Shown piece by piece: positions 5,071-44,506 of a stretch of DNA of 64,000 nucleotides. The notes under the pieces are model-generated. The model was not told the DNA's origin. It saw nothing but the letters and a program-made list of their open reading frames with translations, and did not search any database. Source of the stretch: Patescibacteria group bacterium (GTDB lineage Bacteria; Patescibacteriota; Patescibacteriia; 2-01-FULL-39-33). A program made the translations under genes and the position numbers. Position 1 is the stretch's first letter, and each line of letters opens with the position of its first letter. The stretch spans positions 81,685 through 145,684 of the forward strand of contig JBAZKF010000001.1 of the NCBI GenBank assembly GCA_041650895.1. The letters run 5' to 3'.

Positions 5071-7161
5071 TTATTTTGCCATCCTGACATCAACTACTTT
5101 TACTCCCCTGCCCCTATCCAGCACCATAATCGGATTAAAATCAATTTCTTTCAGTTCCGGATATTTTGCTACCAGACAAGAAAATCTTACCAATAAATCA
5201 GCCAAAGCGCCAATATCAGCCGGTTTTTGGCCGCGCGTACCGGCTAAAAGCGGATAGATTTTCAATTCTTCAATCATTTTTTGCGCTTCATTTTTGTTAA
5301 TAGGCGCCACACGAAAGACTACGTCCTTAAACACTTCTGTATAAATTCCGCCTAAACCAAGCATAATAACGGCGCCGAATTGAGGATCTCGCTTTAGGCC
5401 GACAATCACTTGTTGGCCGCTAACCATCTCGCCTAAAAGATACCCCTTAATTTTGACTCCTTTGACTTTCTGAACAATATCCGTGTTCATCTTTTTTATA
5501 GCGGCCAGCAATTCCGTCTCATTATTTATGCCCACTTTAACCCCGCCTACATCGGACTTATGTATTACTTGAGGCGAAATAACTTTAAGTGCAATGGGGT
5601 AACCGACTCTTTTACCGGCCTTGGCGGCTAAGGAAATATCTGCAATAAACTCGGCGCGGTGCACTGGGATATCATTTTTAATCAGTAGTTGCCGACAGAC
5701 ATCCTCCGTCAATTCATTGGATAATATTTTATTGGGCTTAATGGCGGGGGCTTTTACTGTCGGTTGTTTATTTTTGAGGTATTGGTAATATTTGGCCATA
5801 GTGCTTAAGACACTGACGGCCTGCTCAGGAAAGTTGAATTGCGGTAATTTATTATCGGCAAAAGTCTGATAATATTTGACAATCTCCAATTCACCCAAAA
5901 AACATAGGACGATTGTTTTACTTGTGGTTTTTTTGATTCGGCCGATCGCTTCAGCCGTCTCTTTTATCTGCGTCATTCTCTGCGGGGTTAGCGCTACGAT
6001 TATGGCGTCAACGTTCTTATCTTTAACCACTTCGCGCAGAGCGATCTCATAACGGTCAGCCAGAGCATCACCTAAAACATCAACCGGATTATGGTTGCTG
6101 GCTGCGGCCGGTAAAACTTTTTTTAATTTAGCTTTGGTCGTTTCAGATAATTCGGCTAATTTTAATTTATAGTCTGGCAACCAGTCAGTCAAAAGAATGC
6201 CCGGGCCGCCGGCGTTGGTGACAATAGCCACGCGATTGCCGCGAGGTAAATCTTGGTAGGCAAAACCCTCAGCCAAATTAAAAAAATCCATAACATCACG
6301 CGCCTCAATCACGCCGGATTGCTTAAAGGCGGCGCTATAAACCTGGGCAGTGCCAGCCAGCGATCCGGTATGGGAAGAAACAGCTTGACTGCCGTCCGCG
6401 GTCTTACCTGATTTTAAAACAATAATCGGCTTTTTATCGGAAATTTTATTGGCTATAGATAAGAACTTTTGGCCATCATTAATGCTTTCCAGATAAGCCA
6501 TTATGACCTTGCTGTTTTTATCTTGGTTGAAATATTCCAAAAGATCCAGTTCGTTAATATCACACTTATTGCCCATGGACACAAAATAAGAAAAGCCGAG
6601 TTTCTGGGCTTCGGCCGTATCTAAAATAGCCGTACCTAAAGCGCCGGATTGGGAAAAGAAGGCTACATTGCCCGCCTTGGGGAAGGTGGCGGCAAAGGAA
6701 GCGTTTACTGACGGCTTAGTATTGATATAACCTAAGCAGTTCGGACCGAGTATCCGCAGTTTATATTTATTTTTTAATTGCAGTAATTTTTCTTCCAATT
6801 TAACTCCCTCACCGCCAACTTCTTTAAAACCAGAAGAAATAATCAAAATATTTTTTGTTCCTCTCTTGCCACAATCTTCCACTACAGCCAATACAAATTG
6901 CGCCGGCACGACAATAATCGCTAAATCAGGAATCTGTGGCGTTTTTAAAATTGACGAATATGCCGGCTTGCCCTCTATCTTGGTTTCAGAAGGATTAATG
7001 GGAAAAATCTCGCCCCGGTAATTGACCAAGAGATTCTTTATCACATCATTGCCGACTTTACCGGTATGATTGGAGGCGCCGATTATTGCTACGCTTCGCG
7101 GGTTAAAAAACGATTTAAGGCTATTCATAGTATCTAATTTATAATAATCTAATTTTACCAT
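5071..7161 (-). CDS. acetyl-CoA synthetase (ADP-forming), fused alpha/beta subunits (NDP-forming acyl-CoA synthetase family)
   Basis: CoA-binding N-terminus SVAIIGASNHTGKVGNDVIKNL, succinyl-CoA-synthetase-like ligase domain, C-terminal ATP-grasp. 696 aa. Confidence 0.8.
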   Translation of the reverse strand: MVKLDYYKLDTMNSLKSFFNPRSVAIIGASNHTGKVGNDVIKNLLVNYRGEIFPINPSETKIEGKPAYSSILKTPQIPDLAIIVVPAQFVLAVVEDCGKRGTKNILIISSGFKEVGGEGVKLEEKLLQLKNKYKLRILGPNCLGYINTKPSVNASFAATFPKAGNVAFFSQSGALGTAILDTAEAQKLGFSYFVSMGNKCDINELDLLEYFNQDKNSKVIMAYLESINDGQKFLSIANKISDKKPIIVLKSGKTADGSQAVSSHTGSLAGTAQVYSAAFKQSGVIEARDVMDFFNLAEGFAYQDLPRGNRVAIVTNAGGPGILLTDWLPDYKLKLAELSETTKAKLKKVLPAAASNHNPVDVLGDALADRYEIALREVVKDKNVDAIIVALTPQRMTQIKETAEAIGRIKKTTSKTIVLCFLGELEIVKYYQTFADNKLPQFNFPEQAVSVLSTMAKYYQYLKNKQPTVKAPAIKPNKILSNELTEDVCRQLLIKNDIPVHRAEFIADISLAAKAGKRVGYPIALKVISPQVIHKSDVGGVKVGINNETELLAAIKKMNTDIVQKVKGVKIKGYLLGEMVSGQQVIVGLKRDPQFGAVIMLGLGGIYTEVFKDVVFRVAPINKNEAQKMIEELKIYPLLAGTRGQKPADIGALADLLVRFSCLVAKYPELKEIDFNPIMVLDRGRGVKVVDVRMAK

Positions 7162-8036: not shown

Positions 8037-8921
8037 CTAGTCTTCCCAGGCGAAATCAATGTTTACATTCAGCCCCCCAAACGCGTCCGATTCCACGTAA
8101 GGAAAGGACAACGCATCAGAGAAACTGAATTCGGCCCAGTCAATGCCGCTGATAATAAGCGGCAGGTCGCAATACACGTCATTGCCGTCGCCATCAACGA
8201 CGTAGAGTACGCCACCGCCGAAGTTTAGTGGCAGGTAGGACTTAAAGACCATTTCCGCCTTGCCCCAAACCCATGAGGCATAGTAACTCGCGCCGTCCGG
8301 AGAAATCAGCGTTGAATGACCATATCCCCACTCATCAGCCTGATACCAACCGGGCAGGTTGGTGACGCTAAATTGGAAAGGATAGTTGTAAACAAAGTTC
8401 ATCACCAGGTTTTCATTCCTGTTGATGCCACCCTCCACGGTAACATCCTTCCAGCCAAACAATAGCTGATTGCCGTAGTCATCCTGGAAAGAGATAGACA
8501 GGTAGTAAGTCCCGGGCCGAATTCCGCCGCAATGAGCGCGGAATTGATGGTCGATGATCGGCACATAGAAGGAGTAATAATCGGTCCCGCCTCCCTTACC
8601 TATTTCCACTCCATTATCGGTAGAATATAGGTAGATGTAAATGCGTGTGGCCTGATCCTTGAGTGAATCTCCAATTTCTTGGAGTTCCTCCTGATTCAAG
8701 CCACTAATTCCGTCGCCGTTGTAACCGCCACCCTTTTCCAGGGATTTGGTCACTTCGCCGACGAAATCGTGGTTGATCTTTTCGACGACGGCCGACAAAT
8801 CTCCTTCGATCCAGAACCCGCCGAGTTCGGCTTCGGGGATGGTTTCGGTAATCGGCGGACAGCCCGCCAGAGTCATAGCCGAGACAGTCAGAATGGCAAA
8901 GAGAATGGTAGTGTAACGCAT
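8037..8921 (-). CDS. lipoprotein, hypothetical
   Basis: N-terminus MRYTTILFAILTVSAMTLAGCPP has a signal peptide and a lipobox (LAGC). 294 aa. Confidence 0.6.
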   Translation of the reverse strand: MRYTTILFAILTVSAMTLAGCPPITETIPEAELGGFWIEGDLSAVVEKINHDFVGEVTKSLEKGGGYNGDGISGLNQEELQEIGDSLKDQATRIYIYLYSTDNGVEIGKGGGTDYYSFYVPIIDHQFRAHCGGIRPGTYYLSISFQDDYGNQLLFGWKDVTVEGGINRNENLVMNFVYNYPFQFSVTNLPGWYQADEWGYGHSTLISPDGASYYASWVWGKAEMVFKSYLPLNFGGGVLYVVDGDGNDVYCDLPLIISGIDWAEFSFSDALSFPYVESDAFGGLNVNIDFAWED

Positions 8922-9150
8922 GATGCTTTCCTCCTAAGGTAAGATTGTAACGACCCACACATCAGCCCCACATTAGGACTAATACATAATCATATCATAC
9001 TTTGTTAATTTTGTCAATAGGTTTATCCACTCTGCCAGATAGTTGATTACAATTTTAGCCAAATTTAGACAAAATTAATTATGATAAAACAAAAAGATAA
9101 CTAAAAAAGCCGGCAAAAACCGGCTTTTTTATCTAAAATTAAATTATTAC

Positions 9151-11796
9151 CTATTTTCCATTATTTTCCTTAATCACCGCCTGGGCCGCGGCTAACCGAG
9201 CAATCGGTACGCGGAATGGCGAACAAGACACATAATTAAAACCTTCACGATGACAGAAATTGACAGTTTTGGGTTCTCCGCCATGTTCGCCACAGATGCC
9301 AATCTTCAAGTCTTCTTTGGCGCTTCTGCCTTTCTTAATGGCGATGCGGATAAGCTCGCCGATGCCTTCCTGATCAAGCACTTCAAAAGGATCATATTCA
9401 AAAATACCTTGAGTCACATATTCTTTCAAGAATTTTCCAGCGTCATCACGGGATAAACCGGCGCCCATCTGAGTCAGGTCATTAGTGCCGAAAGAAAAGA
9501 ATTCTGCTCCGGCCTCCACAATCTTATCAGCAATCAGCGCCGCGCGAGGCACTTCAATCATGGTACCGATTTTGTATTTTAATTGGCTATTGGCAGTGGT
9601 CAATTTTTCTTCCACCACCTTAACGATGCGTTCTTTGAGGATAGAGAACTCTTTGACTGTAGCGACCAAAGGAATCATGATTTCCGGTTCCACTTTAATC
9701 CCCTCTTTTTCTACGGCAATCGCCGCTTCAATCACGGCCGCGGCTTGCATGTCATTGATTTCCGGATAAGTGATGGCCAAACGGCAGCCACGATGACCCA
9801 GCATGGGGTTAAATTCGTGTAAATCGTCAATTTTGGTTTTCAACACCTCAATCGGCACATTCATTTCAGCAGAAAGTTCCGCAATGTCTTTTTCTTCTTT
9901 GGGCAAGAATTCATGCAATGGCGGATCTAGGAAGCGAATAGTTACGGCATGGCCATCCATAGCCTTAAACAAACCGATAAAATCTTTTCTTTGATAGGGT
10001 AACAGTTTAGCCAGGGCTTTTTCTCGGCCGGCTATATCAGAAGCTAAAATCATTTCTCTGACAGCTTTGATTCTATCACCCTCAAAAAACATATGCTCGG
10101 TGCGGCATAAGCCGATGCCCTCAGCGCCGAATTTTCTGGCGACCATGGCATCATGAGGCGTGTCAGCGTTAGTGCGAATCTTAAGTTTTCTAACTTCATC
10201 GGCCCAATCCATTAAGGTACCGAAGTTACCGGAAAGTTCCGGATCCTTGGTGCCAAGCTTGCCGTTATACACTTCGCCAGTGGAGCCATCCAAAGAGATA
10301 AATTCTCCTTCTTTTAACGTCAGACCCTTATCTTTAATAGTTAAGGTTCTGGCTTTTTCATCAATAATGATGTCAGCGCAACCGGCAACGCAACAAGTGC
10401 CCATACCGCGGGCCACCACGGCCGCGTGAGAGGTCATACCGCCTCGAGCAGTCAAAATGCCTTTGGCCGAATGCATACCGTCAATATCTTCAGGAGAGGT
10501 TTCGGTGCGGACCAAGATGACATCCAAACCGGCTTGAGTTTTTTCAAACGCTTCAGTGGCAGTAAAAACGACTTCACCGACAGCCGCTCCGGGAGAAGCC
10601 GGCAAACCGCGAGCAATAACTTCACCTTCGGTTTTAGCCAAAGGATCCAGTTGTTTATGTAATAATTGATTTAATTGATTCGGTTCTACGCGCATTAAAG
10701 CTTCATCTTTGGAGATTGCTCCTTCGGTAACTAATTCTACAGCGATGCGCACAGCGGCCGCGGCAGTTCTTTTGCCGTTTCTGGCCTGCAGAATAAATAA
10801 TCGCCCTTGCTGAATGGTGAATTCCATATCTTGCATATCGCGATAATGTTTTTCTACTGTATTGCAAGTATCAACCAACTCTTTGTAAATAGCCGGATTC
10901 TGTTGTTCCAAAGTGGATACGGCAAGCGGAGTACGAATACCGGCGACCACATCTTCGCCTTGCGCGTTCATTAAATATTCGCCATAAAATTTGGCTTCGC
11001 CGGTAGAGGGATTGCGGGTAAAGCAAACACCTGTGCCCGAATCTTCTCCCAGGTTGCCGAACACCATGGTCTGAATATTAACAGCGGTGCCGATCAATCC
11101 CTTAATATCATTGATTTGGCGGTAGCGGATGGCGCGATAGTTGTTCCAAGAATTAAACACGGCATTGATCGCAGCATATAGCTGATCAATCGGGTCTTGC
11201 GGGAAATCCACTCCTTTGACTTCTTTGATTTTAGCTTTATAGCGATTGGCGACTTCCTGCAAATCTTCGGCCGTCAAATCAGTGTCAAATTTAGCACCCT
11301 TGGTATCTTTGACATTCTCCAAAATATGTTCGAATTCGGCATGCTCCACTTCCATCACCACATTACCAAACATTTGAATCAAACGACGATAAGAATCCCA
11401 AGCAAAACGGGCGTTGCCGGTCTTGGTGGCCAAACCCAAAACGGATTGGTCGTTAAGGCCTAAATTCAAAATTGTATCCATCATGCCAGGTAAAGAAGCC
11501 GCGGCGCCAGAGCGAACGGAAACTAATAACGGATCATTGGCATCGCCCAAAGTCTTGGACATCTTTTCTTCCAACTGTTTTAATTTGGTGTTGGTTTGTT
11601 CCTTGACTTCATCAGTGATGGTTTTGCCGGCTTTGTAATACAAATCGCAAACTTCGGTAGTTAAGGTAAATCCCGGAGGGACATTAATACCCAGACTGGA
11701 CATTTCCGCCAAGTTGGCGCCTTTGCCGCCGAGAAGTTCTTTCATGCTTTTATTCCCTTCTTCAAAGGAATAGACGTACTTTTTCACATCAGACAT
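9151..11796 (-). CDS. ppdK: pyruvate, phosphate dikinase
   Basis: 881 aa. N-terminus ...FEEGNKSMKELLGGKGANLAEMSSLGINVPPGFTLTTEVC, central phospho-His domain, C-terminal PEP-utilising domain. Bidirectional terminator at 9103-9132. Confidence 0.93.
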   Translation of the reverse strand: MSDVKKYVYSFEEGNKSMKELLGGKGANLAEMSSLGINVPPGFTLTTEVCDLYYKAGKTITDEVKEQTNTKLKQLEEKMSKTLGDANDPLLVSVRSGAAASLPGMMDTILNLGLNDQSVLGLATKTGNARFAWDSYRRLIQMFGNVVMEVEHAEFEHILENVKDTKGAKFDTDLTAEDLQEVANRYKAKIKEVKGVDFPQDPIDQLYAAINAVFNSWNNYRAIRYRQINDIKGLIGTAVNIQTMVFGNLGEDSGTGVCFTRNPSTGEAKFYGEYLMNAQGEDVVAGIRTPLAVSTLEQQNPAIYKELVDTCNTVEKHYRDMQDMEFTIQQGRLFILQARNGKRTAAAAVRIAVELVTEGAISKDEALMRVEPNQLNQLLHKQLDPLAKTEGEVIARGLPASPGAAVGEVVFTATEAFEKTQAGLDVILVRTETSPEDIDGMHSAKGILTARGGMTSHAAVVARGMGTCCVAGCADIIIDEKARTLTIKDKGLTLKEGEFISLDGSTGEVYNGKLGTKDPELSGNFGTLMDWADEVRKLKIRTNADTPHDAMVARKFGAEGIGLCRTEHMFFEGDRIKAVREMILASDIAGREKALAKLLPYQRKDFIGLFKAMDGHAVTIRFLDPPLHEFLPKEEKDIAELSAEMNVPIEVLKTKIDDLHEFNPMLGHRGCRLAITYPEINDMQAAAVIEAAIAVEKEGIKVEPEIMIPLVATVKEFSILKERIVKVVEEKLTTANSQLKYKIGTMIEVPRAALIADKIVEAGAEFFSFGTNDLTQMGAGLSRDDAGKFLKEYVTQGIFEYDPFEVLDQEGIGELIRIAIKKGRSAKEDLKIGICGEHGGEPKTVNFCHREGFNYVSCSPFRVPIARLAAAQAVIKENNGK

Positions 11797-17928: not shown

Positions 17929-19029
17929 TTAAGATAAAGGAGATGCGGACTGGGGCGACTCAGTCAGTGATGCCAGTAGCGACTGACTGGTTAAGACCGC
18001 TTCTTTGGCGCACAATTCAATCCGCTCCCAGACAATAGCATGGAATTCCTTAACCTTCTTTTCGTAGTTTTTGGCGCCACCGGAGTAACGCGCCAATGCT
18101 TTGGACCAGTTGCCCTTTTCCTTAACCAGAAAATAGTGCAAGACGAAGGCGCCCATGCGAATGTTATGTTCCGGGTTTTTCAGAATACTAATGAGATTTT
18201 CCCGGAATTTCTCCACTTGACGAACTCTTTCCCGTGCCTCCTTTTTATTTTTAGCGGGCTTAATGAACTTCGGTTCTGACCAAAGACCGAAGCGCTTGGC
18301 TACTCCTTGGCCGGTACCGTATTGAACCTGCATCAAGCCATACGCTTCGGCGCAAGATTTGGCGTTCGGATCATGCCATGATTCGGTATGGGCAATCGCC
18401 ACTAAAATCCCCCGCGGGAATTTATAATGGCTTTCCCATTTCTCAAAATCACGCGCCCACCTGTTGGCTTCCGCATCCGACACGCGGTGGTTGTCCCGTT
18501 GAATAAAGGCGACATAGACATTAATAACTTCTTGTGGCGACAACAACTCCAAATTAACCAAGGTCGAATCAGTCGCCTCAATTGATTGACTAAGAATCAC
18601 TGACTCGGACTCGCCTGAACTGACTGCTTGTTGTTGCAGAAAAATCTTCTCTGCCTGCAATAGTTCAGAGTCCAATTCTCGCTCGTCAATAAAATCAACC
18701 GGCTCAATAGCATTCATTATCGTTAAGGCCGGCCGATCTGACTCGATCCGTTTAATCCGACAGTCTGCCCGACATTTTGCGGTATCAATGCCGGCCGCCA
18801 GAACTTGGCCTTCGCCCAGCCAGGCACCCAGCGCCACAACGGCAGAAAACGCTAAAAATGCCATAACCAACATCAGATTAACGCGTTGGATGAAAAAGTT
18901 AACGCATCCTTGGACAATCCGAATATCAGCCGATTTGCCATCAAAAAAACTGTTCATTGTAAATGTTCCTTTTGATATCTTCCCTAATTTTAGGGATTTT
19001 TTTTGACACAAGTTGGTCACAGCGACCAA
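17929..19029 (-). CDS. lytic transglycosylase (SLT domain), membrane-anchored
   Basis: SLT catalytic region AIAHTESWHDPNAKSCAEAYGLMQVQ. N-terminal transmembrane segment. The true start may be the internal Met of MNSFFDG. Confidence 0.75.
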   Translation of the reverse strand: MVAVTNLCQKKSLKLGKISKGTFTMNSFFDGKSADIRIVQGCVNFFIQRVNLMLVMAFLAFSAVVALGAWLGEGQVLAAGIDTAKCRADCRIKRIESDRPALTIMNAIEPVDFIDERELDSELLQAEKIFLQQQAVSSGESESVILSQSIEATDSTLVNLELLSPQEVINVYVAFIQRDNHRVSDAEANRWARDFEKWESHYKFPRGILVAIAHTESWHDPNAKSCAEAYGLMQVQYGTGQGVAKRFGLWSEPKFIKPAKNKKEARERVRQVEKFRENLISILKNPEHNIRMGAFVLHYFLVKEKGNWSKALARYSGGAKNYEKKVKEFHAIVWERIELCAKEAVLTSQSLLASLTESPQSASPLS

Positions 19030-19164
19030 TGTTTATTATTATATCACACCTTTACTTTTTTGTCAAGATGTTTATCCACAGGGGGGCTAACATGCCTATC
19101 TTGATCTTTTAGAACCCAAAACCCGCCTCGGACATAGCCGTGACGGGTTTTAAATTTACCTGAA

Positions 19165-32236: not shown

Positions 32237-33358
32237 CTATTTAACTATTGAATCATACAACACGACTGTTTCCTCGGCCATCCTCTGCCAAGAAAATCGC
32301 TTAATATTTTCCCGCGCCCGATCAATCAACTGCTGCCGCAGATCGGCATCAGCCAAAACTGAAACAATCTTATCCGCCATACTCTTGGAACTTTGAGGGT
32401 CAAAATAGGCCGCTGAATCATCCAAGACTTCCGGCAAGCAACTGGCATTTGACGAAACTACCGGCAAGCCATAACTCTGAGCTTCCAACGGCGGCAGGCC
32501 GAATCCTTCCATTAATGACGGAAAAGCATACAAACGCGCATTGGAATACAAACAAACCAATTCTTCATCTGTCAAATAGCCGGGTAAAATTATTTTATTT
32601 TTCAACTCTTCTTTTATTCCCTCACCCAAGCGCTGATAAAAAAAGCTTTCTTTGCCGGCCAGAACCAATTGCCAATCAGGCTGTTGCCTTAAAATGATTT
32701 CAAACGCTTCAATCAGTTTTTCCAGATTTTTGTGCGGATAAGCCGAACCGACATAAAGCAAAAAATCCTGTTTGATGCCTAGCCTCTCAAACAATAACGG
32801 ACAAGAAACCGGCGACAGGCGCGGTAAATCCGTCCCCTCATAAACCACCGAGATTTTTTCCGGCCGGATTTCCAGTAAGCGCGCAATATCATCTTTGGTG
32901 TAGCGGGAAACAGCGATGATTTTTCTGGCACGCTTGGCCGCCCGAGAAATTACCAGCCGATACATTGCTAATTTAAATTTATACAACCAGGGGTTAAGGG
33001 TGGTGGCTCGACTGGACGGATAATGGCTGACAATCAAATCATGGATGGTTACAACATAACGGCCGAAAAAAAACAGTGGAACATTGAAGTGAGTAAAGTG
33101 AACTAAATCCGGCTGGTGGGAATAAATTAAAAACGGTAAAAGAATCTGTTCAAACAAGCCATAAACCCGGAAATCTGCGCGATATTTTTTGAAGTTGGGA
33201 TTCTGTGGCTGATACTCATCATAATTCTGTTGTTGCAACAAGATGACATACTGATTATGCGTGTCCGTGACTTCCAGGTTTTTGATAAGTTCCTGGGTGT
33301 AACGGCCAATACCGGCATGTTTAGTGCCATAAAGGCGCGCGTCTATTAGTATTTTCAT
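32237..33358 (-). CDS. glycosyltransferase family 1 (GT4-type)
   Basis: C-terminal EGFGLPPLEAQSYGLPVVSS motif (the E-x7-E region of GT-B retaining enzymes). Confidence 0.85.
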   Translation of the reverse strand: MKILIDARLYGTKHAGIGRYTQELIKNLEVTDTHNQYVILLQQQNYDEYQPQNPNFKKYRADFRVYGLFEQILLPFLIYSHQPDLVHFTHFNVPLFFFGRYVVTIHDLIVSHYPSSRATTLNPWLYKFKLAMYRLVISRAAKRARKIIAVSRYTKDDIARLLEIRPEKISVVYEGTDLPRLSPVSCPLLFERLGIKQDFLLYVGSAYPHKNLEKLIEAFEIILRQQPDWQLVLAGKESFFYQRLGEGIKEELKNKIILPGYLTDEELVCLYSNARLYAFPSLMEGFGLPPLEAQSYGLPVVSSNASCLPEVLDDSAAYFDPQSSKSMADKIVSVLADADLRQQLIDRARENIKRFSWQRMAEETVVLYDSIVK

Positions 33359-33488
33359 AATGCATTAATATTAACACTTATTTGATTTTTGAACAAAAAT
33401 AACGTATATTGTAAGTAACTGTTTTATCTTATTTTAGGTATTTTATTGCTCTTAGAAGCATGCAAGCCATATTCTGTGGATAACTGTC

Positions 33489-33517
33489 TTGACAAAATAA
33501 TCAAGGTGTGCTATAAT
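33489..33517 (+). promoter_or_regulatory. consensus sigma-70 promoter of the GC-rich cassette
   Basis: TTGACA (33489-33494), 17-bp spacer, TATAAT (33512-33517). Shine-Dalgarno GAAGGAG lies 7 nt before the ATG at 33585. Confidence 0.6.
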
Positions 33518-33584
33518 TATATAATGTAGTTTTTGTAATTTTTTGAAGATAGGCGTGGACATTAACAACTGAAGGAGTGTAAGT

Positions 33585-33956
33585 ATGCCTTTGGAAGCCG
33601 AGGAAAACTGGGGACTCTGGTATGACTTGATGGAAACCCCGCCGGAAGTGCCGGATCTGGGACACCAGAAACCGCCACGCCGAAAACGGCTGAAAATCCG
33701 TCTGCCTGGCGGCCGTCGTAAAGTCCTAAAGGGCAAACGTGGCGGTGAAAACGTACCCTGGTATGCAAGGTACAAGGATTCCTGGGGTAGCTTTCCGACA
33801 CGCTCGGAGCGCCTGGACGCGCGCCATGATTTGCGCGAGGCCATAAGGGATGCCGTGGAAGAGGAACCGTCCTCCTTAAAACAACCCCGACGCGAGCTTG
33901 TCTTCGCTTCGTATGGCGGAGACGGCGAGGGCAACGCCGGTTGCCTGATGTACTAA
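33585..33956 (+). CDS. hypothetical basic/proline-rich protein (GC-rich foreign gene)
   Basis: About 58% GC against a genome average of about 42%. Strong Shine-Dalgarno. 123 aa, MPLEAEENWGLWYDLMETPPEV...RRKRLKIRLPGGRRKVLKGKRGG. Confidence 0.5.
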   Translation: MPLEAEENWGLWYDLMETPPEVPDLGHQKPPRRKRLKIRLPGGRRKVLKGKRGGENVPWYARYKDSWGSFPTRSERLDARHDLREAIRDAVEEEPSSLKQPRRELVFASYGGDGEGNAGCLMY

Positions 33957-33964
33957 ACTAACCG

Positions 33965-34324
33965 ATGAAATTGAAATATAAGGAGACTGGTGAGATGGAA
34001 ACAAATCCGATTGGTCGCATTCTCATTATTGTAGGGGTTGCAATGAGCGTGATCATGTTATTCTTTACCATAAGCAATGCGACGAACGACGAGAAAGCCA
34101 GAAAGGTTGCGGAGACCTACGGATTTTCCAGTGTTATGATCATTGACCAAAAAAACGAAATTGACAGCCACGGCAACAGTATCGGCGTATTCTATTGCGT
34201 CGCCACTAACGCCGGTGGCAATCCTGCGGTGGTCAAGGTGATCAAATCGCTGGACGGCGGCGATTGGAAAATCCGCGTTCAAGGCGATATGCCTGATTTC
34301 CCGGCGCCACTAAAGCACCCATAA
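33965..34324 (+). CDS. hypothetical membrane-anchored small protein (GC-rich foreign gene)
   Basis: Shine-Dalgarno AAGGAG. N-terminal transmembrane helix IGRILIIVGVAMSVIMLFFTI. 119 aa. Followed by a terminator. Confidence 0.5.
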   Translation: MKLKYKETGEMETNPIGRILIIVGVAMSVIMLFFTISNATNDEKARKVAETYGFSSVMIIDQKNEIDSHGNSIGVFYCVATNAGGNPAVVKVIKSLDGGDWKIRVQGDMPDFPAPLKHP

Positions 34325-34342
34325 AAACTTCGCACCTTACTC

Positions 34343-34379
34343 CCCGCTTGGGCCTTCTGCTCAAGCGGGTGTTTTATTT
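34343..34379 (+). terminator. intrinsic terminator
   Basis: ccgcttg-ggccttctgct-caagcgg hairpin then gtgttttattt. Confidence 0.5.
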
Positions 34380-34410
34380 ATATTTATGAAAGGTAACTCG
34401 CTCAATAATA

Positions 34411-35505
34411 TTAAGAAACAATGCTTTTCAATGTCTCCTCCGCTGTTTTATCCCAACCAAACATCTTAGCCCGCTCGCGTCCGCGACTGGAAAGCTCTGC
34501 GCCCAACTCATTATTCCGCCATAACTCAGACATCGCTTCAGTGATACTGTTTATATCATAAGGGTCAACCAACAGACCGCAATCAGCCAATACCTCACCC
34601 TGTGACGAATTGTTGCCGGCGATAACCGGACAGCCCGAAGCCATAGCTTCCAAAATAGGCAAACCAAAACCCTCATAAAATGACGGGTAAACCAAAGCGC
34701 GCGCCAATCGGTATAAGGCCGGCTTATCTGCTTCCGGCACGTAACCGATCATTTTTATCCTCTCATTACTTTTAATGGCTTTTAACTCCTTCTGATTCTT
34801 CCAACCGCCGGCGCCGGCTATAACCAGTTGAGTCTCAGGTATTTTTTCTAACGCCTTTAAAACGCCGAGCAAGTTCTTGCGCGGCTCCAGCGAAGAAACA
34901 AACAACAAAAACTTATCCGGCAAATCATACTTTTCTTTCACTGCTCTTAATTCCTCGGCCGGAATTTCCTGCTGATACTTCTCCCCCACCCCCAAATATA
35001 CAGTCTTAATCTTTTCAACCGGCAAGGCCAACAAATCAACCAAGTCCCGCTTGGTACTTTCGCTATCGGCTATAATAGTATCGGCGCGATTCAATACTCC
35101 CGAAGCCAAAATCAATTTATGCCACCATTGCTGTCGAAATGTAAAGAATTCCGGATGAATTAAAAAAGACAGGTCATGGACGGCAATGATCAACCGGCAA
35201 GAATCGGCAACGGAAATAAAATTAAGATTCGGCGCAAAAAACGCCTCCGCCCCGCCACAAAGCTTATCCAATTTCGGTCGGCCGGTAGAACCCAAACTCA
35301 GATTCAATAGTTTATTGGGATAACGGAAAATCTTTGTTTGGTAGCCCAGGTCCGATAAATCGACTGCCTGGGATGAGTTGGCAAACAATAGCCAATCATG
35401 ACCATTATCAATTAAACGCAGGTGCCGTGACAGATTATGAGCATACCAGGAAACGCCGGAATATTTTGCGTCCAACAGGCAACGGCCATCAAAAATTATT
35501 TTCAT
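34411..35505 (-). CDS. glycosyltransferase family 1
   Basis: VYPSFYEGFGLPILEAMASGCPVIAGN motif. Confidence 0.85.
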   Translation of the reverse strand: MKIIFDGRCLLDAKYSGVSWYAHNLSRHLRLIDNGHDWLLFANSSQAVDLSDLGYQTKIFRYPNKLLNLSLGSTGRPKLDKLCGGAEAFFAPNLNFISVADSCRLIIAVHDLSFLIHPEFFTFRQQWWHKLILASGVLNRADTIIADSESTKRDLVDLLALPVEKIKTVYLGVGEKYQQEIPAEELRAVKEKYDLPDKFLLFVSSLEPRKNLLGVLKALEKIPETQLVIAGAGGWKNQKELKAIKSNERIKMIGYVPEADKPALYRLARALVYPSFYEGFGLPILEAMASGCPVIAGNNSSQGEVLADCGLLVDPYDINSITEAMSELWRNNELGAELSSRGRERAKMFGWDKTAEETLKSIVS

Positions 35506-36647: not shown

Positions 36648-36779
36648 AAAGATAATGCTGTTATTTTAGCCGATAGACAAAAATTAGGCAAACTAAAACC
36701 GTTTAAGGCTTCTCTAATTAAAAAAGCTCTGTGCAATATTGAACAGAGCGTAACTATGGATTGCATGCAGTAATAGCAT

Positions 36780-37031
36780 TTATGCCTTTAATGCAGCATC
36801 AATGATTTTCAAAGCGATTTCTTCACTAAACTCGCTTATTAGTTGGCTATATATCTCTTTTGTAACATCAAATCCCGCAGCGATTACCTTAATAGCTTGA
36901 TTCTCACCAAAACCCGCGCTTTGCATTGCGCCATAAATTTTCTTTAAAGCCTCAAAATATCCTTTGGAGTAACTCTTCTTATATCCATCTTCCTATGTCT
37001 CATCCATAGACACTTCTAATGAGTCAGGCAT
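36780..37031 (-). pseudogene. small ORF (83 codons) with an in-frame TAG after codon 12
   Basis: Strong Shine-Dalgarno AAAGGAGG lies 6 nt upstream of the ATG at 37031. The reading frame is MPDSLEVSMDET*EDGYKKSYSKGYFEALKKIYGAMQSAGFGENQAIKVIAAGFDVTKEIYSQLISEFSEEIALKIIDAALKA*. It is absent from the ORF track because of the TAG codon at 36993-36995 (minus strand). Confidence 0.3.
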
Positions 37032-37049
37032 ATTATTCCTCCTTTCTCA

Positions 37050-37502
37050 TTATTCAATACTAAATACTAAAGTATTGGCAGCAACCCAGCAATTTTCAAA
37101 ACATTTTGCCTGCTCTCCAGGCCAACGGAAAATCAATCCATCGGATTTGCCTGACAACCGATTGCATTTGCCGTTCAATTGAATAAATGAAAGAAATGAT
37201 TCTCTGCTTTCCATATAAACCTTATCAGAATAATGTGTCGAAGAATGAGAGGGAGCAATAAGAAAAACAAAAGCCTTGCCGTAACGTTTTTCCAATTCAC
37301 CTTTAATAACACAGCGGAATTCCACACTACCAACAGTAACCGTTTGTGAATGCAAATCTCGCGGATCGTACGCTTCCCATTCCAATGAACAAATATCGCC
37401 ATGTTTTAAAACGGCCGATAAAGCCTCAAGCTCATTACGCTCTTTTGGCAATCTGGCTGTAATTGTGAACAATTTTTTCTCCGGCTCATAATCAAATCTC
37501 AT
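37050..37502 (-). CDS. hypothetical protein (150 aa)
   Basis: Shine-Dalgarno AAAGGAG upstream. Its own sigma-70-like promoter sits at about 37560-37607. No recognisable motif. Confidence 0.45.
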   Translation of the reverse strand: MRFDYEPEKKLFTITARLPKERNELEALSAVLKHGDICSLEWEAYDPRDLHSQTVTVGSVEFRCVIKGELEKRYGKAFVFLIAPSHSSTHYSDKVYMESRESFLSFIQLNGKCNRLSGKSDGLIFRWPGEQAKCFENCWVAANTLVFSIE

Positions 37503-37692
37503 ACCTTGCTCCTTTCTGTCTTTTCGTCTATGCAGTAATTTAAAATCGTAATTTTGTTTTCAAGGTTCGACTAATAGGTCATTTTACCAGATATTTTAAA
37601 ATTGTCAAACTAAAACTGTTTAAGGCTTCTCTGTGTCTTAATATTAAATCAATAATTTAAAAGCAAAAAACGTCTACTCGCTTGAGTAAACG

Positions 37693-40338: not shown

Positions 40339-41899
40339 TATGAAATACTTCATTTACGCTCGCAAGAGCACCGAAGACGAGGATCGTCAGATACTTTCAA
40401 TCGAAGCTCAGATTACTGAGCTAAAAGAATTTGCCGCCAAACCCAGTAAATTTTTCAATAAATCAGCTCTTGAAAAATTTACTGAAATGAGTTATGATTA
40501 ACTCATTGAAAAACTGGAAATTGCCGATTCATTTTTTGAATCAAAAACCGCCAAAGAACCGGGCCGAAAGATTTTCGGCGAAATACTGGCCAGAATAGAG
40601 CAAGGCCAAGCTGATGGCATCCTATCGTGGCATCCAGATCGCTTGGCGCGTAATAGCGTTGACGGTGGCAAGATTATTCATTTGGTTGATAGAGGAGTGA
40701 TAAAGGCCCTCAAATTTCCTTGCTTCTGGTTTGAACCCACCCCGCAAGGATTATTTATGCTAAATATCGCTTTCGGCCAATCAAAATATTTTGTGGACAA
40801 TTTACGGGAGAACGTAAAGCGAGGATTAAGACAAAAGCTAAGGAACGGTGTTTGGCCGTCTTTTGCGCCAGTGGGCTATCTAAACAATGCGAGAACTCGA
40901 GGCATTGATGTGGATACTGTTAAGAGCGACAAAATCAGGAAAGTGTTTGAACTTTACGCCACTGGCAATTATGCGCTTTTGTCTTTAGTTAATTGGTGCG
41001 AAGCTAACGGCTTGACTGGCGGTTATCATCGCAAATTGTCCGTTAATGCGATATTTAGCATGTTACAAAATATTTTCTACCTTGGTTTGATGCGCTACAA
41101 GGGTGAAGTATTTGAGGGCACTCACGAGCCATTAATATCAAAGAAATTGTTTGAAGAGGTGCAAAAAGTGCGCAATACCCGAGCGAGGACACGAAAAAAA
41201 TTACACAGAGAGTTTGCATTTACTGGACTAATGAAATGCTTGTGCGGTTGCTTCATTACCGCAGAAACACAGAAAGGCCACAACTATTATCGTTGTACGA
41301 AAAAACGAGGCGAATGCACTGAAAAGCACTTTTTGCGCGAGGAAGAATTGGAATCACAAATCAAACAATATCTTCAAACAATTGCTTTGAACGACCAAGA
41401 CCAGGAAAAGATTATGATTGAGTTGGACAAAGACGAACTAACAGCCAAAACGCAAGCTCAGACCAATGTTCAAAATCTCAAAAGCGAGTTAGAGAATATT
41501 AATCAGCAATTAGAGAAACTGCTTGATGTCTATTTGAGCGATACAATCTCGACTGACGAATACACCGCTAGAAAACAAAAAATCCTAACTCGCAAGTTAG
41601 AACTTAATGAGAAAATCAAAGATTTTGAACATAATAACTGGTCTTGGGTCGAACCGGCTCGTGAGTTTATTTTATCGCTCAACCAAGCTGATAATCTGCT
41701 ACGAAATTCAGAAAAGTCAGATCTGGCCGCATTTCTAAAAAATATCGGGTCGAACCGCATTTTACAAAACCGCCAATTGCTTTTTGATTATAAAATTCCG
41801 TATGATTTGGTCGCCGCCTGCGGTGGCGAGGAGCGGAAAAATTTGACTATTCCTTTCTGGTGCGCCCAGCTGGACTCGAACCAGCGACCATCAGCTTAA
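40339..41899 (+). pseudogene. large serine recombinase (resolvase/invertase N-domain, recombinase domain, zinc ribbon, coiled coil), disrupted
   Basis: N-terminus MKYFIYARKSTEDEDRQILSIEAQITELKEFAAK carries the catalytic Ser motif. An insertion of about 70 bp with an in-frame TAA at 40498-40500 follows. The frame then resumes as LEIADSFFESKTAKEPG, and a +1 shift in a G4 run (40560-40563) leads into RKIFGEILARIEQGQADGILSWHPDRLARN... (track ORF 40643-41899). The zinc ribbon CLCGCFITAETQKGHNYYRCTKKRGEC is present. The last 42 nt overlap tRNA-Lys. Confidence 0.7.
41737..41862. repeat. inverted repeats m' (41737-41763) and IRb (41764-41862)
   Basis: Reverse complements of 40019-40045 and 40161-40259. 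IRb ends 5 nt into the CCA end of tRNA-Lys. Confidence 0.8.
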
Positions 41900-41933
41900 A
41901 AGGCTGTTGCTCTACCGACTGAGCTATAGGCGC
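41858..41933 (-). tRNA. tRNA-Lys (anticodon UUU), CCA encoded
   Basis: Manual fold of gcgcctatagctcagtcggtagagcaacagccttttaagctgatggtcgctggttcgagtccagctgggcgcacca: 7-bp acceptor stem, D stem gctc/gagc, anticodon loop cuUUUaa, T-loop ttcgagt. Confidence 0.9.
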
Positions 41934-42207: not shown

Positions 42208-42765
42208 TTGGGCAAAATAGGAGAAAAAGCCATGGCCCCGCATTGTCTGCTACCCAATTGTATACTACTCATCTTCCTTTTTCTTGTTGCCTTGCAAATC
42301 ACGCCGTTTATAATTTTTTGGGCCTGGCTAAGCTGTTCCGCGATCAAGGCATTTGTTACCGACAATAAATCCTGGCACTTGAGTAAAAAACAGGATTGGT
42401 TTCTCTATAACTTTTGCCTATACCGATCTTTTCTTTACGAGGTTGTTAGTTTTACGGAACTTAGCGATGATATTGAGCGTGGCTATCAAGCAATAAAAAG
42501 CACCAACAACAATTACTTGGTTGTTATAAGGGATGTACTTATTATTTATCTTATTAACCTCATCATCTTGGCCATCTCATTCTTTGCCCTAACGGTTATA
42601 TTAGTAGTCGTTACCATAACTTTCCCGATCAGTCTTTATGTTTTCCTGGCCATGTCAGGGTTCGCTTTGATCATTGGGACTGGTTATGTGTCCTTACGCC
42701 TGGCGCGTTTCTTCTATCGCCTGCAAAGAAGGCTGAACATATCCGGAGAAAAAATAAAGTTTTAA
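42208..42765 (+). CDS. membrane protein, hypothetical (paralog A)
   Basis: Three predicted transmembrane helices. C-terminal motif LRLARFFYRLQRRLNISGEKIKF shared with the next gene. Confidence 0.5.
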   Translation: MGKIGEKAMAPHCLLPNCILLIFLFLVALQITPFIIFWAWLSCSAIKAFVTDNKSWHLSKKQDWFLYNFCLYRSFLYEVVSFTELSDDIERGYQAIKSTNNNYLVVIRDVLIIYLINLIILAISFFALTVILVVVTITFPISLYVFLAMSGFALIIGTGYVSLRLARFFYRLQRRLNISGEKIKF

Positions 42766-42792
42766 AACCGCAACCAATTGGGAGGATAAAAA

Positions 42793-43296
42793 ATGCATTC
42801 CTTCATGCCCTTTGCCGGCTGGCTTTTCCTAATGGTCTTTGTCTTGACCCCCGTCTCTTACTACAGCTGTTTGCTTATCAATTGGACTATTCTTTATGTT
42901 AAAGACGAAAAATGGCAAGCCTCCAAAACAATCAGGGATCTGCGTTATTATCTCTGTTGGGAGTGGCTGATTTCTGGAATTCTCGATGTGCTGAACCGAA
43001 CAGAAAATAACTTGCTAGACCTAACAGGAAATAACTATTATGATAACATCTTAAAGGAAGGCATAGACTACTACATCGGAATTCCCTTTATTGCGAATGT
43101 CATTATGTTTATTTTCTTTATTTGCGTTACTCTGGTGAGTCTGATAATTCTTATAGAATTTGGCTTATTCTGGCTCTTAGCAATATTGGGGCTGATACTC
43201 TGTGCCGCGATTTATTACCTTGTTATTCGCTTGATACGCTTCTTCTATCGTATGCAAAAAAAATTAAACAAAAAAGGCAAAGAGGTGGCTTTTTGA
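42793..43296 (+). CDS. membrane protein, hypothetical (paralog B)
   Basis: Shine-Dalgarno GGAGG. Same topology as paralog A. C-terminus VIRLIRFFYRMQKKLNKKGKEVAF. Confidence 0.5.
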   Translation: MHSFMPFAGWLFLMVFVLTPVSYYSCLLINWTILYVKDEKWQASKTIRDLRYYLCWEWLISGILDVLNRTENNLLDLTGNNYYDNILKEGIDYYIGIPFIANVIMFIFFICVTLVSLIILIEFGLFWLLAILGLILCAAIYYLVIRLIRFFYRMQKKLNKKGKEVAF

Positions 43297-43378
43297 GAAC
43301 CGCCGGAAACCAACATATGAGCCAAACCCGTCTTGCGCTCATAGAACTAAACACTGTTATATCGGATAGGAGGCATGA

Positions 43379-44506
43379 ATGACGAATAAAGAAAATCCCG
43401 ATGCCATTACTTTACCAAAAATCAAAGGAGTGGTAGAAATACCCAACTGCGGACTTTATGCCAAGGGTCCGCGAAAATTAAGAAAGCTCTTTGAGTGGCT
43501 AAGCCAATACTACGATATTGAGGACTGTTCCAAGAATGAAAGCTACCCCTCTCCCGGCACTTGGTATGCCAGAATAAAGCCGAGCTTGGTGCATGAATGT
43601 GTCAAATGTAATTGGTGCGGATCCTATATAAACCCAGTGGGAGTCGGTATCCATGGTCATCGTTGCGAAATCTGCAATAAGATAACAATGGAAAGATTCA
43701 CCCATAACGGCACGATCCGTTTCCGTTTCGCAGATGACTGCGATATTTCCGATATTGAAATGAGAATATTCGGCTATGATGACGCTACCGAAAGCATACT
43801 GCTCTATCCGAATATAGTATCAAGCGAAAGATGCTTCATACTTACACAACAACAAGCTCATAAAAAATTCAAAAGATTTTCTGCTAGCTGGCAAGAGGTG
43901 GAACGCAACGGCCAAAAGCTGATCGCCATCCCCAGAAGCAATATTAATTCGGTTGAGATCATAGGCCAAAAAAGACATTATAAAGCAGTCAGACTATTTG
44001 CCGGTAAAGAGTACGATGGTTGGCCCCTCAACGATCTGCCCGTCACTGAGTCATACATGATTTATGAGGCCTGGCGTTGGGCGCCACTTAGGCCATCGCC
44101 AAAACTGCACGAGAGCATAATCCATGCCGCAGGCATGGTCAGTCGAGTTGATTTTTATTATCAGGATGGTCGCCGGGCCTTTGACGACATTCACCTTCAA
44201 CGCATGCGGCGATTTGTCCATCATTTTACCACTCTTGACCTTAATGAGTGGGATCGGATGATCAGCCAAAATGATTTATCCGGCCCAAGCATGATTAGGG
44301 CGATCGCTCGTCTCTGCCACCCCAACGCACAAGTACGAAATAAACCGAACATCAGCAATTTAATTGACGCCACTGCTAAAATCGCTGATGGAGAAAGTCT
44401 TTGTATGAATGAAATGATGGCCGCAGCCGATGCTCTGAAAAATCCCAGAATCTGCAGGGAGTTCATTGATATTATGGGATGTGGTATCAAAATCCAAAAC
44501 ATATAA
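43379..44506 (+). CDS. hypothetical protein with N-terminal zinc ribbon
   Basis: Shine-Dalgarno AGGAGG. CVKCNWCGSY...HRCEICNK (C-x2-C...C-x2-C). 375 aa, no other recognisable motif. Terminator at 44521-44555. Confidence 0.5.
   Translation: MTNKENPDAITLPKIKGVVEIPNCGLYAKGPRKLRKLFEWLSQYYDIEDCSKNESYPSPGTWYARIKPSLVHECVKCNWCGSYINPVGVGIHGHRCEICNKITMERFTHNGTIRFRFADDCDISDIEMRIFGYDDATESILLYPNIVSSERCFILTQQQAHKKFKRFSASWQEVERNGQKLIAIPRSNINSVEIIGQKRHYKAVRLFAGKEYDGWPLNDLPVTESYMIYEAWRWAPLRPSPKLHESIIHAAGMVSRVDFYYQDGRRAFDDIHLQRMRRFVHHFTTLDLNEWDRMISQNDLSGPSMIRAIARLCHPNAQVRNKPNISNLIDATAKIADGESLCMNEMMAAADALKNPRICREFIDIMGCGIKIQNI

Follow-up and report, generated by a model that had tools for sequence, protein, structure and literature searches.

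A two-gene, opposite-strand cassette in a variable slot of a Patescibacteria envelope-glycan locus: probable vertical inheritance and a proposed accessory role

A cassette of two small genes in a Patescibacteria genome is probably a vertically inherited, lineage-restricted operon that occupies a variable slot in a conserved envelope-glycan locus and may serve the envelope as an accessory. It lies at positions 33,489 to 34,379 of a 64,000-nucleotide (nt) stretch of contig JBAZKF010000001.1, called the window throughout. The two genes, ORF1 and ORF2, are on the plus strand between minus-strand genes for GT4-type glycosyltransferases (GTs), and appear as hypothetical proteins WC473_00600 and WC473_00605 in the public annotation of this Patescibacteria (Candidate Phyla Radiation, CPR) metagenome-assembled genome (MAG). 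The minus-strand neighbours are three GT4-type glycosyltransferases (Pfam Glycos_transf_1 and Glyco_transf_4), two of which flank the cassette and are called GTL and GTR, and a 972-amino-acid (aa) DUF4012 protein. DUF4012 is a CPR-enriched family tied to capsular polysaccharide and exopolysaccharide (CPS/EPS) clusters (Meheust et al. 2019, PMC6744442). Together, the DUF4012 and GT4 genes mark an envelope polysaccharide locus, in the order GT4-GT4-slot-GT4-DUF4012.

Homologues of ORF1 and ORF2 occupy the same slot, on the opposite strand and between the same two GTs, in three other lineages (L001-L004 with L007; L005 with L006; and L087, in our numbering of loci). In these homologous loci the cassette and its two GTs are bordered by DUF4012 at one end and by the third GT at the other. 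Pairwise Nei-Gojobori estimates of synonymous divergence (dS) of the window from L001 and L005, respectively, are 0.93 and 1.35 for ORF1, 1.09 and 1.64 for GTL, and 0.94 and 1.18 for GTR. For the cassette as a whole, ORF2 included, dS is about 1-1.4, in line with the two flanking genes. In a neighbour-joining (NJ) tree of GTL plus GTR, the four cassette lineages form one clade, and the branching order is the same for the cassette and for its flanks. In L031, a distant relative with a GTL of 57% identity, the slot contains a disrupted homologue of ORF2. An in-frame TAA at about 5750-5752 on the minus strand interrupts it, and the sequence joined across this stop matches the ORF2 profile in hhalign with 93.6% probability (E 2e-7); the interruption could be a pseudogene, an assembly error or read-through. 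The initial annotation of this DNA had described the cassette as recently acquired. That claim is refuted because the same genes stand in the same slot in three other lineages, with dS and branching order congruent with the flanks, a finding that the initial annotation had itself named as fatal to the claim, and the L031 remnant also contradicts it.

The two GTs usually abut across Patescibacteria. Among loci that carry both, they are less than 40 nt apart in 25 of 54 and less than 110 nt apart in 32 of 54, and at cassette-less junctions the GTR stop lies 3-15 nt from the GTL ATG. The cassette is therefore an old insertion into a variable slot. This is also the outcome of the comparison that the initial annotation had suggested, with related GT clusters that lack the insert: relative to the ancestral operon, the cassette is inserted. 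It contains no mobility gene. A 12-nt AT-rich direct repeat (CATTAATATTAA at 33363-33374 and CAATAATATTAA at 34403-34414, 92% identity) brackets it exactly, one copy by the GTL start and the other over the GTR stop. The repeat could be a relic of a target-site duplication or a chance occurrence, and it is poorly conserved in relatives.

The features of the cassette and its flanks are as follows.
32237..33358, minus strand: GTL, flanking GT4 glycosyltransferase, divergent from the cassette (Pfam Glycos_transf_1 1e-35, Glyco_transf_4 1e-15).
33426..33439, no strand assigned: AT-rich near-palindrome ATCTTATTTTAGGT; consensus in relatives ATCTAA-nn-TTAGAT; seen by eye in the window, L001, L005, L011 and L014.
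33452..33934, minus strand: antisense 160-aa open reading frame (ORF), not a gene, overlapping the promoter and the conserved sense-strand coding signal.
33475..33483, plus strand: TGTGGATAA box, which read in reverse complement matches the DnaA-box consensus TTATCCACA exactly; 5 nt upstream of the -35 element.
33489..33517, plus strand: promoter of sigma-70/sigma-A type matching at 12 of 12 positions; TTGACA 33489-33494, 17-nt spacer ending in TGC (extended -10), TATAAT 33512-33517.
33524..33584, plus strand: predicted 5' untranslated region with a CA-rich ACATTAACAAC stretch and the Shine-Dalgarno sequence GAAGGAG, 88% identical to L001; its start is inferred from the position of the -10 element.
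33571-33577, plus strand: Shine-Dalgarno sequence GAAGGAG, 7 nt 5' of the ORF1 ATG at 33585.
33585..33956, plus strand: ORF1, 123 aa, called from homologues and the ratio of nonsynonymous to synonymous divergence (dN/dS).
33995..34324, plus strand: ORF2, 109 aa; the alternative ATG at 33965 would give 119 aa.
34343..34379, plus strand: intrinsic terminator with an 11-bp stem containing 8 GC pairs (hairpin 34343-34369), followed by the T-tract TGTTTTATTT.
34411..35505, minus strand: GTR, flanking GT4 glycosyltransferase, convergent with the cassette (Pfam Glycos_transf_1 3e-34).

Both ORFs are, judging from their substitution patterns, real genes under purifying selection that is three to four times more relaxed than that on the GTs. 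Pairwise dN/dS, from the same Nei-Gojobori estimates, is 0.16-0.38 for ORF1, 0.31-0.54 for ORF2 and 0.07-0.14 for the flanking GTs. Among 5.8 billion proteins searched, ORF1 has homologues in two further lineages, at 67% and 50% identity, and these lineages also yielded ORF2. A full HMMER profile search across 1.84 billion cluster representatives brought in a further ORF1 relative, P0008 (E 3e-6), so that the ORF1 homologues are P0002, P0003 and P0008 only. These homologues, the selection on both proteins and the signals described below uphold the earlier description of two genes in a self-contained transcription unit on the opposite strand. The length of 123 aa given for ORF1 stands. For ORF2, the 119 aa first reported are probably 109: the most likely start is the ATG at 33995, because AAGGAG lies 9 nt upstream at 33980-33985 and both the homologues and the NCBI annotation agree with it, whereas the ATG at 33965 has no Shine-Dalgarno sequence. 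The antisense ORF had been dismissed as an artefact, correctly so: the open stretch is 166 aa long in the window and 58-109 aa in L001, L005 and L087, where it is not kept open.

The expression signals of the cassette are its own. In a consensus scan the promoter is the sole site matching at 12 of 12 positions in the 28-40 kb part of the window, and the promoter block is kept in L001, L005 and L087, where the surrounding intergenic DNA is about 45% identical. The TGTGGATAA box stands at the same distance from the -35 element in L001-L007 and L087, and is thus conserved across four lineages counting the window. The pairing of the terminator hairpin is likewise kept in four lineages, with one compensatory pair, and its T-tract is present on the plus strand only. 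Promoter, box and terminator all stay conserved where neutral sites are near saturation. The exact TTGACA-17-TATAAT promoter, the GAAGGAG Shine-Dalgarno sequence and the clean terminator of the initial annotation were all recovered, the promoter with an extended -10 element of TRTG type in addition. It is plausible, from these consensus matches, that transcription of the cassette is strong and independent of the GT genes.

Further upstream, the AT-rich near-palindrome could be an operator or a UP-like element. As a promoter for GTL it finds no acceptable -35 partner by eye, and the consensus scan gives no minus-strand site there. A similar palindrome, TAAATTTAGAT (9418-9432 of locus L089), lies upstream of an unrelated promoter of the same class. 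The element recurs 15-35 nt upstream of the TGTGGATAA box, at the cassette promoter and at one unrelated promoter.

The slot varies within a Buchananbacteria-like clade, defined here by GTL at least 53% identical. Six clade loci have no insert (L009, L012, L013, L017, L019 and L051), and L015 has a 242-nt AT-rich gap without an ORF. An opposite-strand unit with a strong promoter and terminator is found in seven clade loci plus the window, L005 and L087. The contents of the slot differ between relatives. In L011 it encodes a basic protein of 64 aa whose last residues are MIFASYGDGE, and in L014 a Lys-rich one of 121 aa that includes IILASYSEEEG; L018 has two ORFs there, L016 four small membrane peptides, and L010 an unrelated 95-aa ORF. 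In a local search with hidden Markov models over every ORF in 86 loci, the best out-of-family matches of both the ORF1 and ORF2 profiles lie in the slot. ORF1 matches the ORFs of L018, L011 and L014 through short motifs only (hhalign P 0.003, 0.003 and 0.18), which is suggestive of remote kinship. Loci with and without the cassette are mixed in the NJ tree. Most simply read, the unit was acquired long ago and has since undergone turnover and loss; the alternative is that a permissive site gained such units repeatedly. Thus, in the widely conserved CPR envelope locus GT4-GT4-GT4-DUF4012, small opposite-strand genes are gained and lost at one position, which supplies candidate lineage-specific surface or host-interaction factors.

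Two further observations concern these relatives. Past its terminator, L005 carries a nested inverted-repeat element of about 175 nt that resembles a miniature inverted-repeat transposable element and is absent from the window (arms 9187-9211/9337-9361, 9213-9227/9306-9320 and 9246-9261/9290-9305). In addition, MAGs titled 'uncultured Gammaproteobacteria', 'Bdellovibrionales' and 'Saccharibacteria' (L014, L026, L031, L063, L067 and others) carry a typical Patescibacteria GT4-GT4-GT4-DUF4012 locus. Their taxonomic labels look unreliable because the GT sequences group with Buchananbacteria-like MAGs.

The protein encoded by ORF1 is modeled as mostly disordered (mean predicted local distance difference test score, pLDDT, of 60), with a single predicted helix at residues 73-92. 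Its head (residues 1-26) is acidic and aromatic, rich in Trp, with a net charge of -7. It is followed by a basic block (residues 27-56, net +12) that contains the conserved PDLGHxKP...RLPGGRRKxLKGKRGG. Near the C-terminus lies a VFASYGGD motif, of which VFASYG is conserved. In L001, ORF1 diverges past VFASYGED (8330-8447), reaches 148 aa and overlaps the ORF2 start, and the 3' end of the gene is unstable between lineages. Several candidate assignments for ORF1 were rejected. The stretch WYARYKDSWGSFPTRSERLDARHDL, considered as an AP2/integrase-arm DNA-binding motif, is not conserved in L001 or L005 and is disordered in the model; a CaaX-like reading of the C-terminal CLMY fails on the absence of the Cys in L005 and L087; and a Pfam match to HYLS1_C (PF15311) reaches 21.2 bits against a threshold of 27 over a charged helical stretch, with the homologues matching no family.

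ORF2 is predicted by AlphaFold2 (pLDDT 79.6) to have a long N-terminal helix, including a transmembrane segment at residues 9-27, followed by four antiparallel strands. The domain of about 70 aa is modeled as one helix packed on a four-stranded beta-sheet. The best fold matches in the PDB, both sub-significant, are the membrane-proximal NTF2-like N-terminal domain of PBP2a (E 0.056) and an NTF2-like 'transpeptidase'. L005 has a tandem ORF2 paralogue, a third plus-strand gene of 125 aa (8746-9123). Because the N-termini of the L087 and L005 paralogues are basic, the charge pattern suggests that ORF2, a predicted single-pass membrane protein, has its N-terminus inside and its C-terminus outside, placing the small domain outside the membrane.

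On the preferred reading of an inherited accessory operon, an ancestor of the Buchananbacteria-like clade would have gained an opposite-strand unit between the two GT genes, which in the subclade of the window consists of ORF1 and ORF2. The ORF2 domain would be exposed on the cell surface, at the site where the polymer that the flanking GT and DUF4012 genes produce comes out, and ORF1 would work inside the cell, where its basic block would engage an anionic partner. The pair would then be a rapidly evolving module, accessory to the envelope or the host interface and not a core enzyme. The insertion also splits an old operon, and its strong transcription would run head-on against read-through from the upstream GT genes. 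Between GTR and GTL a scan found neither a terminator nor a consensus promoter on the minus strand, and the insert could therefore also affect GTL-DUF4012 expression.

Several points weigh against this reading. The NJ tree carries no support values. The topology of ORF2 depends on charge bias in the paralogues, the flanking charges of the window protein itself being ambiguous or weak. Neither protein matched Pfam above threshold, NCBIfam, PHROGs, PADLOC, PDB sequences, or PDB and BFVD folds significantly. The level of expression is inferred from consensus matches. The slot in related genomes holds unrelated small genes, so the linkage to the GTs may be a historical accident, and a homologue of the first ORF of L018 adjoins a methionine aminopeptidase gene in L089.

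The last two points lead to the main rival, a real if lesser possibility: that the slot is simply permissive, a tolerant site of the kind at which small, promoter-equipped genes arise, move and turn over in reduced genomes, so that the role of the cassette is unrelated to the GTs and its place in a glycan locus is accidental. The different small genes in L010, L016 and L018, with L011 and L014 holding only motif-level relatives, fit this account, as does the L018-type ORF in L089. Elsewhere, promoters of this class drive at least 20 different genes, whose products are mostly small or membrane proteins, and ORF1 has the disorder and rapid evolution that are common in young genes. Against it, the pair has been kept in the slot through saturating synonymous divergence in four lineages, a relative of ORF2 persists in the slot of L031, and the 5.8 billion proteins searched contain no copy of ORF1 or ORF2 elsewhere.

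The promoter class invites a broader view. The window holds four exact TTGACA-17-TATAAT sites (19038, 25866, 33489 and 48083) and six with one mismatch, against 0.46 expected, about 20 times chance. The perfect promoter is thus not the special mark that the initial annotation made of it: being typical of transcription-unit starts in this genome, it is uninformative on foreign origin. Such starts can probably be mapped in the genome from sequence alone. The cassette copy (33475-33517, plus strand) belongs to a 43-nt class with the architecture TGTGGATAA-N5-TTGACAAAA-N8-GTRTGn-TATAAT. The same architecture occurs at 19038-19080 (minus strand), 5' of a gene for a lytic transglycosylase with an SLT domain (17929-19029), and it is retained at the orthologous SLT genes of L105 and L121, two related genomes. 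A copy at 8989-9031 (minus strand), with one box mismatch and a TATGAT -10 element, lies 5' of the gene (8037-8921) for a secreted protein of 294 aa. In public metagenome contigs the class was found at 40 loci (36 distinct instances; loci L088-L128), driving many different genes, mostly for small, membrane or secreted proteins. It could serve in predicting transcription units of uncultured Patescibacteria, and perhaps a regulon.

The exact DnaA-box 9-mer TTATCCACA occurs five times in the 64 kb (19072, 23199, 32145, 33475 and 55170), where about 0.5 would be expected of a random 9-mer, and two of the five copies stand in the promoter arrangement. Allowing one mismatch raises the count to 31, against an expectation of 14.8. 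Because the 43-nt class drives many unrelated genes, the TGTGGATAA box may be part of the promoter itself, an element specific to the clade, and not a site for DnaA. A bolder proposal, which we regard as doubtful, is that the GT/GT junction is a dedicated hot spot where Buchananbacteria-like CPR bacteria exchange small surface or basic proteins and let them evolve fast, expressing them from a composite promoter specific to the clade (AT-rich palindrome, the DnaA-box-like TGTGGATAA and a consensus -35/TRTG/-10), with the box defining a regulon. If this were true, the regulon would take in the cassette, the SLT lytic transglycosylase and many small membrane proteins, and through it the replication initiator, or some other global factor, would be coupled to the proteins with which these episymbionts build their envelope and contact their hosts.

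It is unlikely that the insert is chiefly regulatory, with its strong promoter, head-on to the transcript of the third GT and GTR, insulating or tuning the downstream GTL-DUF4012 genes and its proteins secondary. The cassette does split a formerly tightly coupled operon, the GTR-GTL interval has no detected minus-strand consensus promoter or terminator, the T-tract of the cassette terminator is on the plus strand only, and promoter and terminator are the best-conserved parts. Against such a role stand the clear purifying selection on both protein sequences and the duplication of ORF2 in L005.

A selfish or phage-derived two-gene module, whether a toxin-antitoxin pair or a holin-like membrane protein with a partner, is quite improbable. 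It would suit two small adjacent genes with their own promoter. The transmembrane region of ORF2, and that region only, weakly matches Phage_holin_2 (PF23778; 16.5 bits, E 0.01, against a 32-bit cutoff, and rejected as an assignment), and fold searches gave a weak, sub-significant resemblance to small uncharacterised phage proteins (best E 3e-3, TM-score 0.38-0.52). A tblastn search of 50,697 phage records gave no match of note for either protein, which answers the search of phage sets suggested with the initial annotation, and PHROGs and PADLOC gave none of note either. The pair sits at this one locus only in every lineage examined and is vertically inherited, no toxin or antitoxin fold is recognisable, the proteins and their homologues belong to no Pfam, NCBIfam or PADLOC family, and the only candidate target-site repeat is the 12-nt AT-rich pair.

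The initial reading of a recent, horizontally acquired and compositionally foreign insert is scarcely credible. Its appeal lay in composition and in the orientation opposite to the neighbours. ORF1, at 58.3% GC, ranks top among the gene-sized ORFs of the window, 3.6 standard deviations above the gene mean of 44.6%, and the third-position GC (GC3) of both ORFs lies in the upper tail, a moderate excess (residual z=1.8 for ORF1 and 1.6 for ORF2). The contrast of about 58% against 42% GC first reported holds for ORF1; it does not hold for ORF2 (47.2%, or 48.5% from the likely start) or for the flanking GTs (43.7-47.5%), and the whole feature stands at 50.2% and the window at 43.4%. ORF1 is 12% Arg, 11% Gly, 9% Pro and 11% Glu, and its own residues with the codon usage of the window predict 53.9% GC. 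The contrast is therefore mainly an effect of protein composition, about two thirds of the ORF1 excess coming from its richness in Arg, Gly, Pro and Glu. In codon-usage likelihood ORF1 is unremarkable (z=-0.57), and ORF2 falls somewhat on the low side (z=-1.9). In three homologous loci ORF1 has 50-53% GC, with GC3 near that of the flanking genes (little or no excess). With diverged relatives carrying the same genes at the same place at matching dS, and no mobility genes, the cassette is instead a clean example of how small Arg/Gly/Pro-rich proteins mimic a foreign GC island.

A GC-rich structured non-coding RNA with spurious ORFs, suggested by a GC-rich island with its own promoter and terminator in an AT-rich genome, can be dismissed: Rfam 15 gives no match at the gathering threshold and only chance-level ones at E up to 10 (E >= 1.6), the folding z-score of the ORF1 region is only -1.54, and the substitutions are of coding type.

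Elsewhere in the window, the region 36648-37692 holds a 150-aa ORF without a Pfam match (37050-37502) where L001 (11169-11861) and L087 (5536-6198) have a polysaccharide deacetylase after the third GT. A gene for a large serine recombinase (Recombinase and Zn_ribbon_recom; 40643-41899, plus strand) overlaps at its 3' end the tRNA-Lys-TTT gene (41858-41933, minus strand), the only tRNA gene in the window, and is followed by several ORFs without Pfam matches (42208-44506). This region may be an integrated element.

Taken as it stands, the finding matters little: the genes of the cassette are ordinary, restricted to one clade, and already listed as hypothetical in the annotation of the MAG. The initial annotation described the anatomy largely correctly. 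Of modest interest beside it are the variable slot in a widely conserved CPR envelope locus and the recurring promoter class with its DnaA-box-like element. The cassette can be compared with several known systems. DnaA doubles as a transcription factor in model bacteria, for example at dnaA or sda. The cassette resembles DnaA-box-containing promoters in the perfect TTATCCACA/TGTGGATAA 9-mer beside its -35 element, conserved across lineages, and differs from them in that its box belongs to a 43-nt class driving many unrelated genes. Like type II toxin-antitoxin or holin modules, it has two small genes, predicted to be co-transcribed from their own promoter, with one product predicted to be membrane-embedded. 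Unlike them, it shows no family or fold, no mobility and no multiplicity, and the pair is stable at one site over long divergence.

The predicted architecture of ORF2, an N-terminal transmembrane helix followed by a helix packed on a four-stranded antiparallel sheet, recalls membrane-anchored small alpha+beta domains such as the NTF2-like domain of PBP2a and PepSY- or cystatin-like domains; the superposition is not significant (E >= 0.056, TM-score about 0.27-0.33), and there is no sequence match or family membership. The closest parallel in organization is with the variable accessory genes of CPS/EPS and O-antigen-type clusters. The cassette differs from these in lacking a recognisable enzyme, flippase, polymerase or chain-length regulator, and in being transcribed against the cluster from its own promoter. 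It shares with them the presence of small lineage-specific genes among conserved GTs, at one position whose content differs between relatives, with DUF4012 nearby (PMC6744442).

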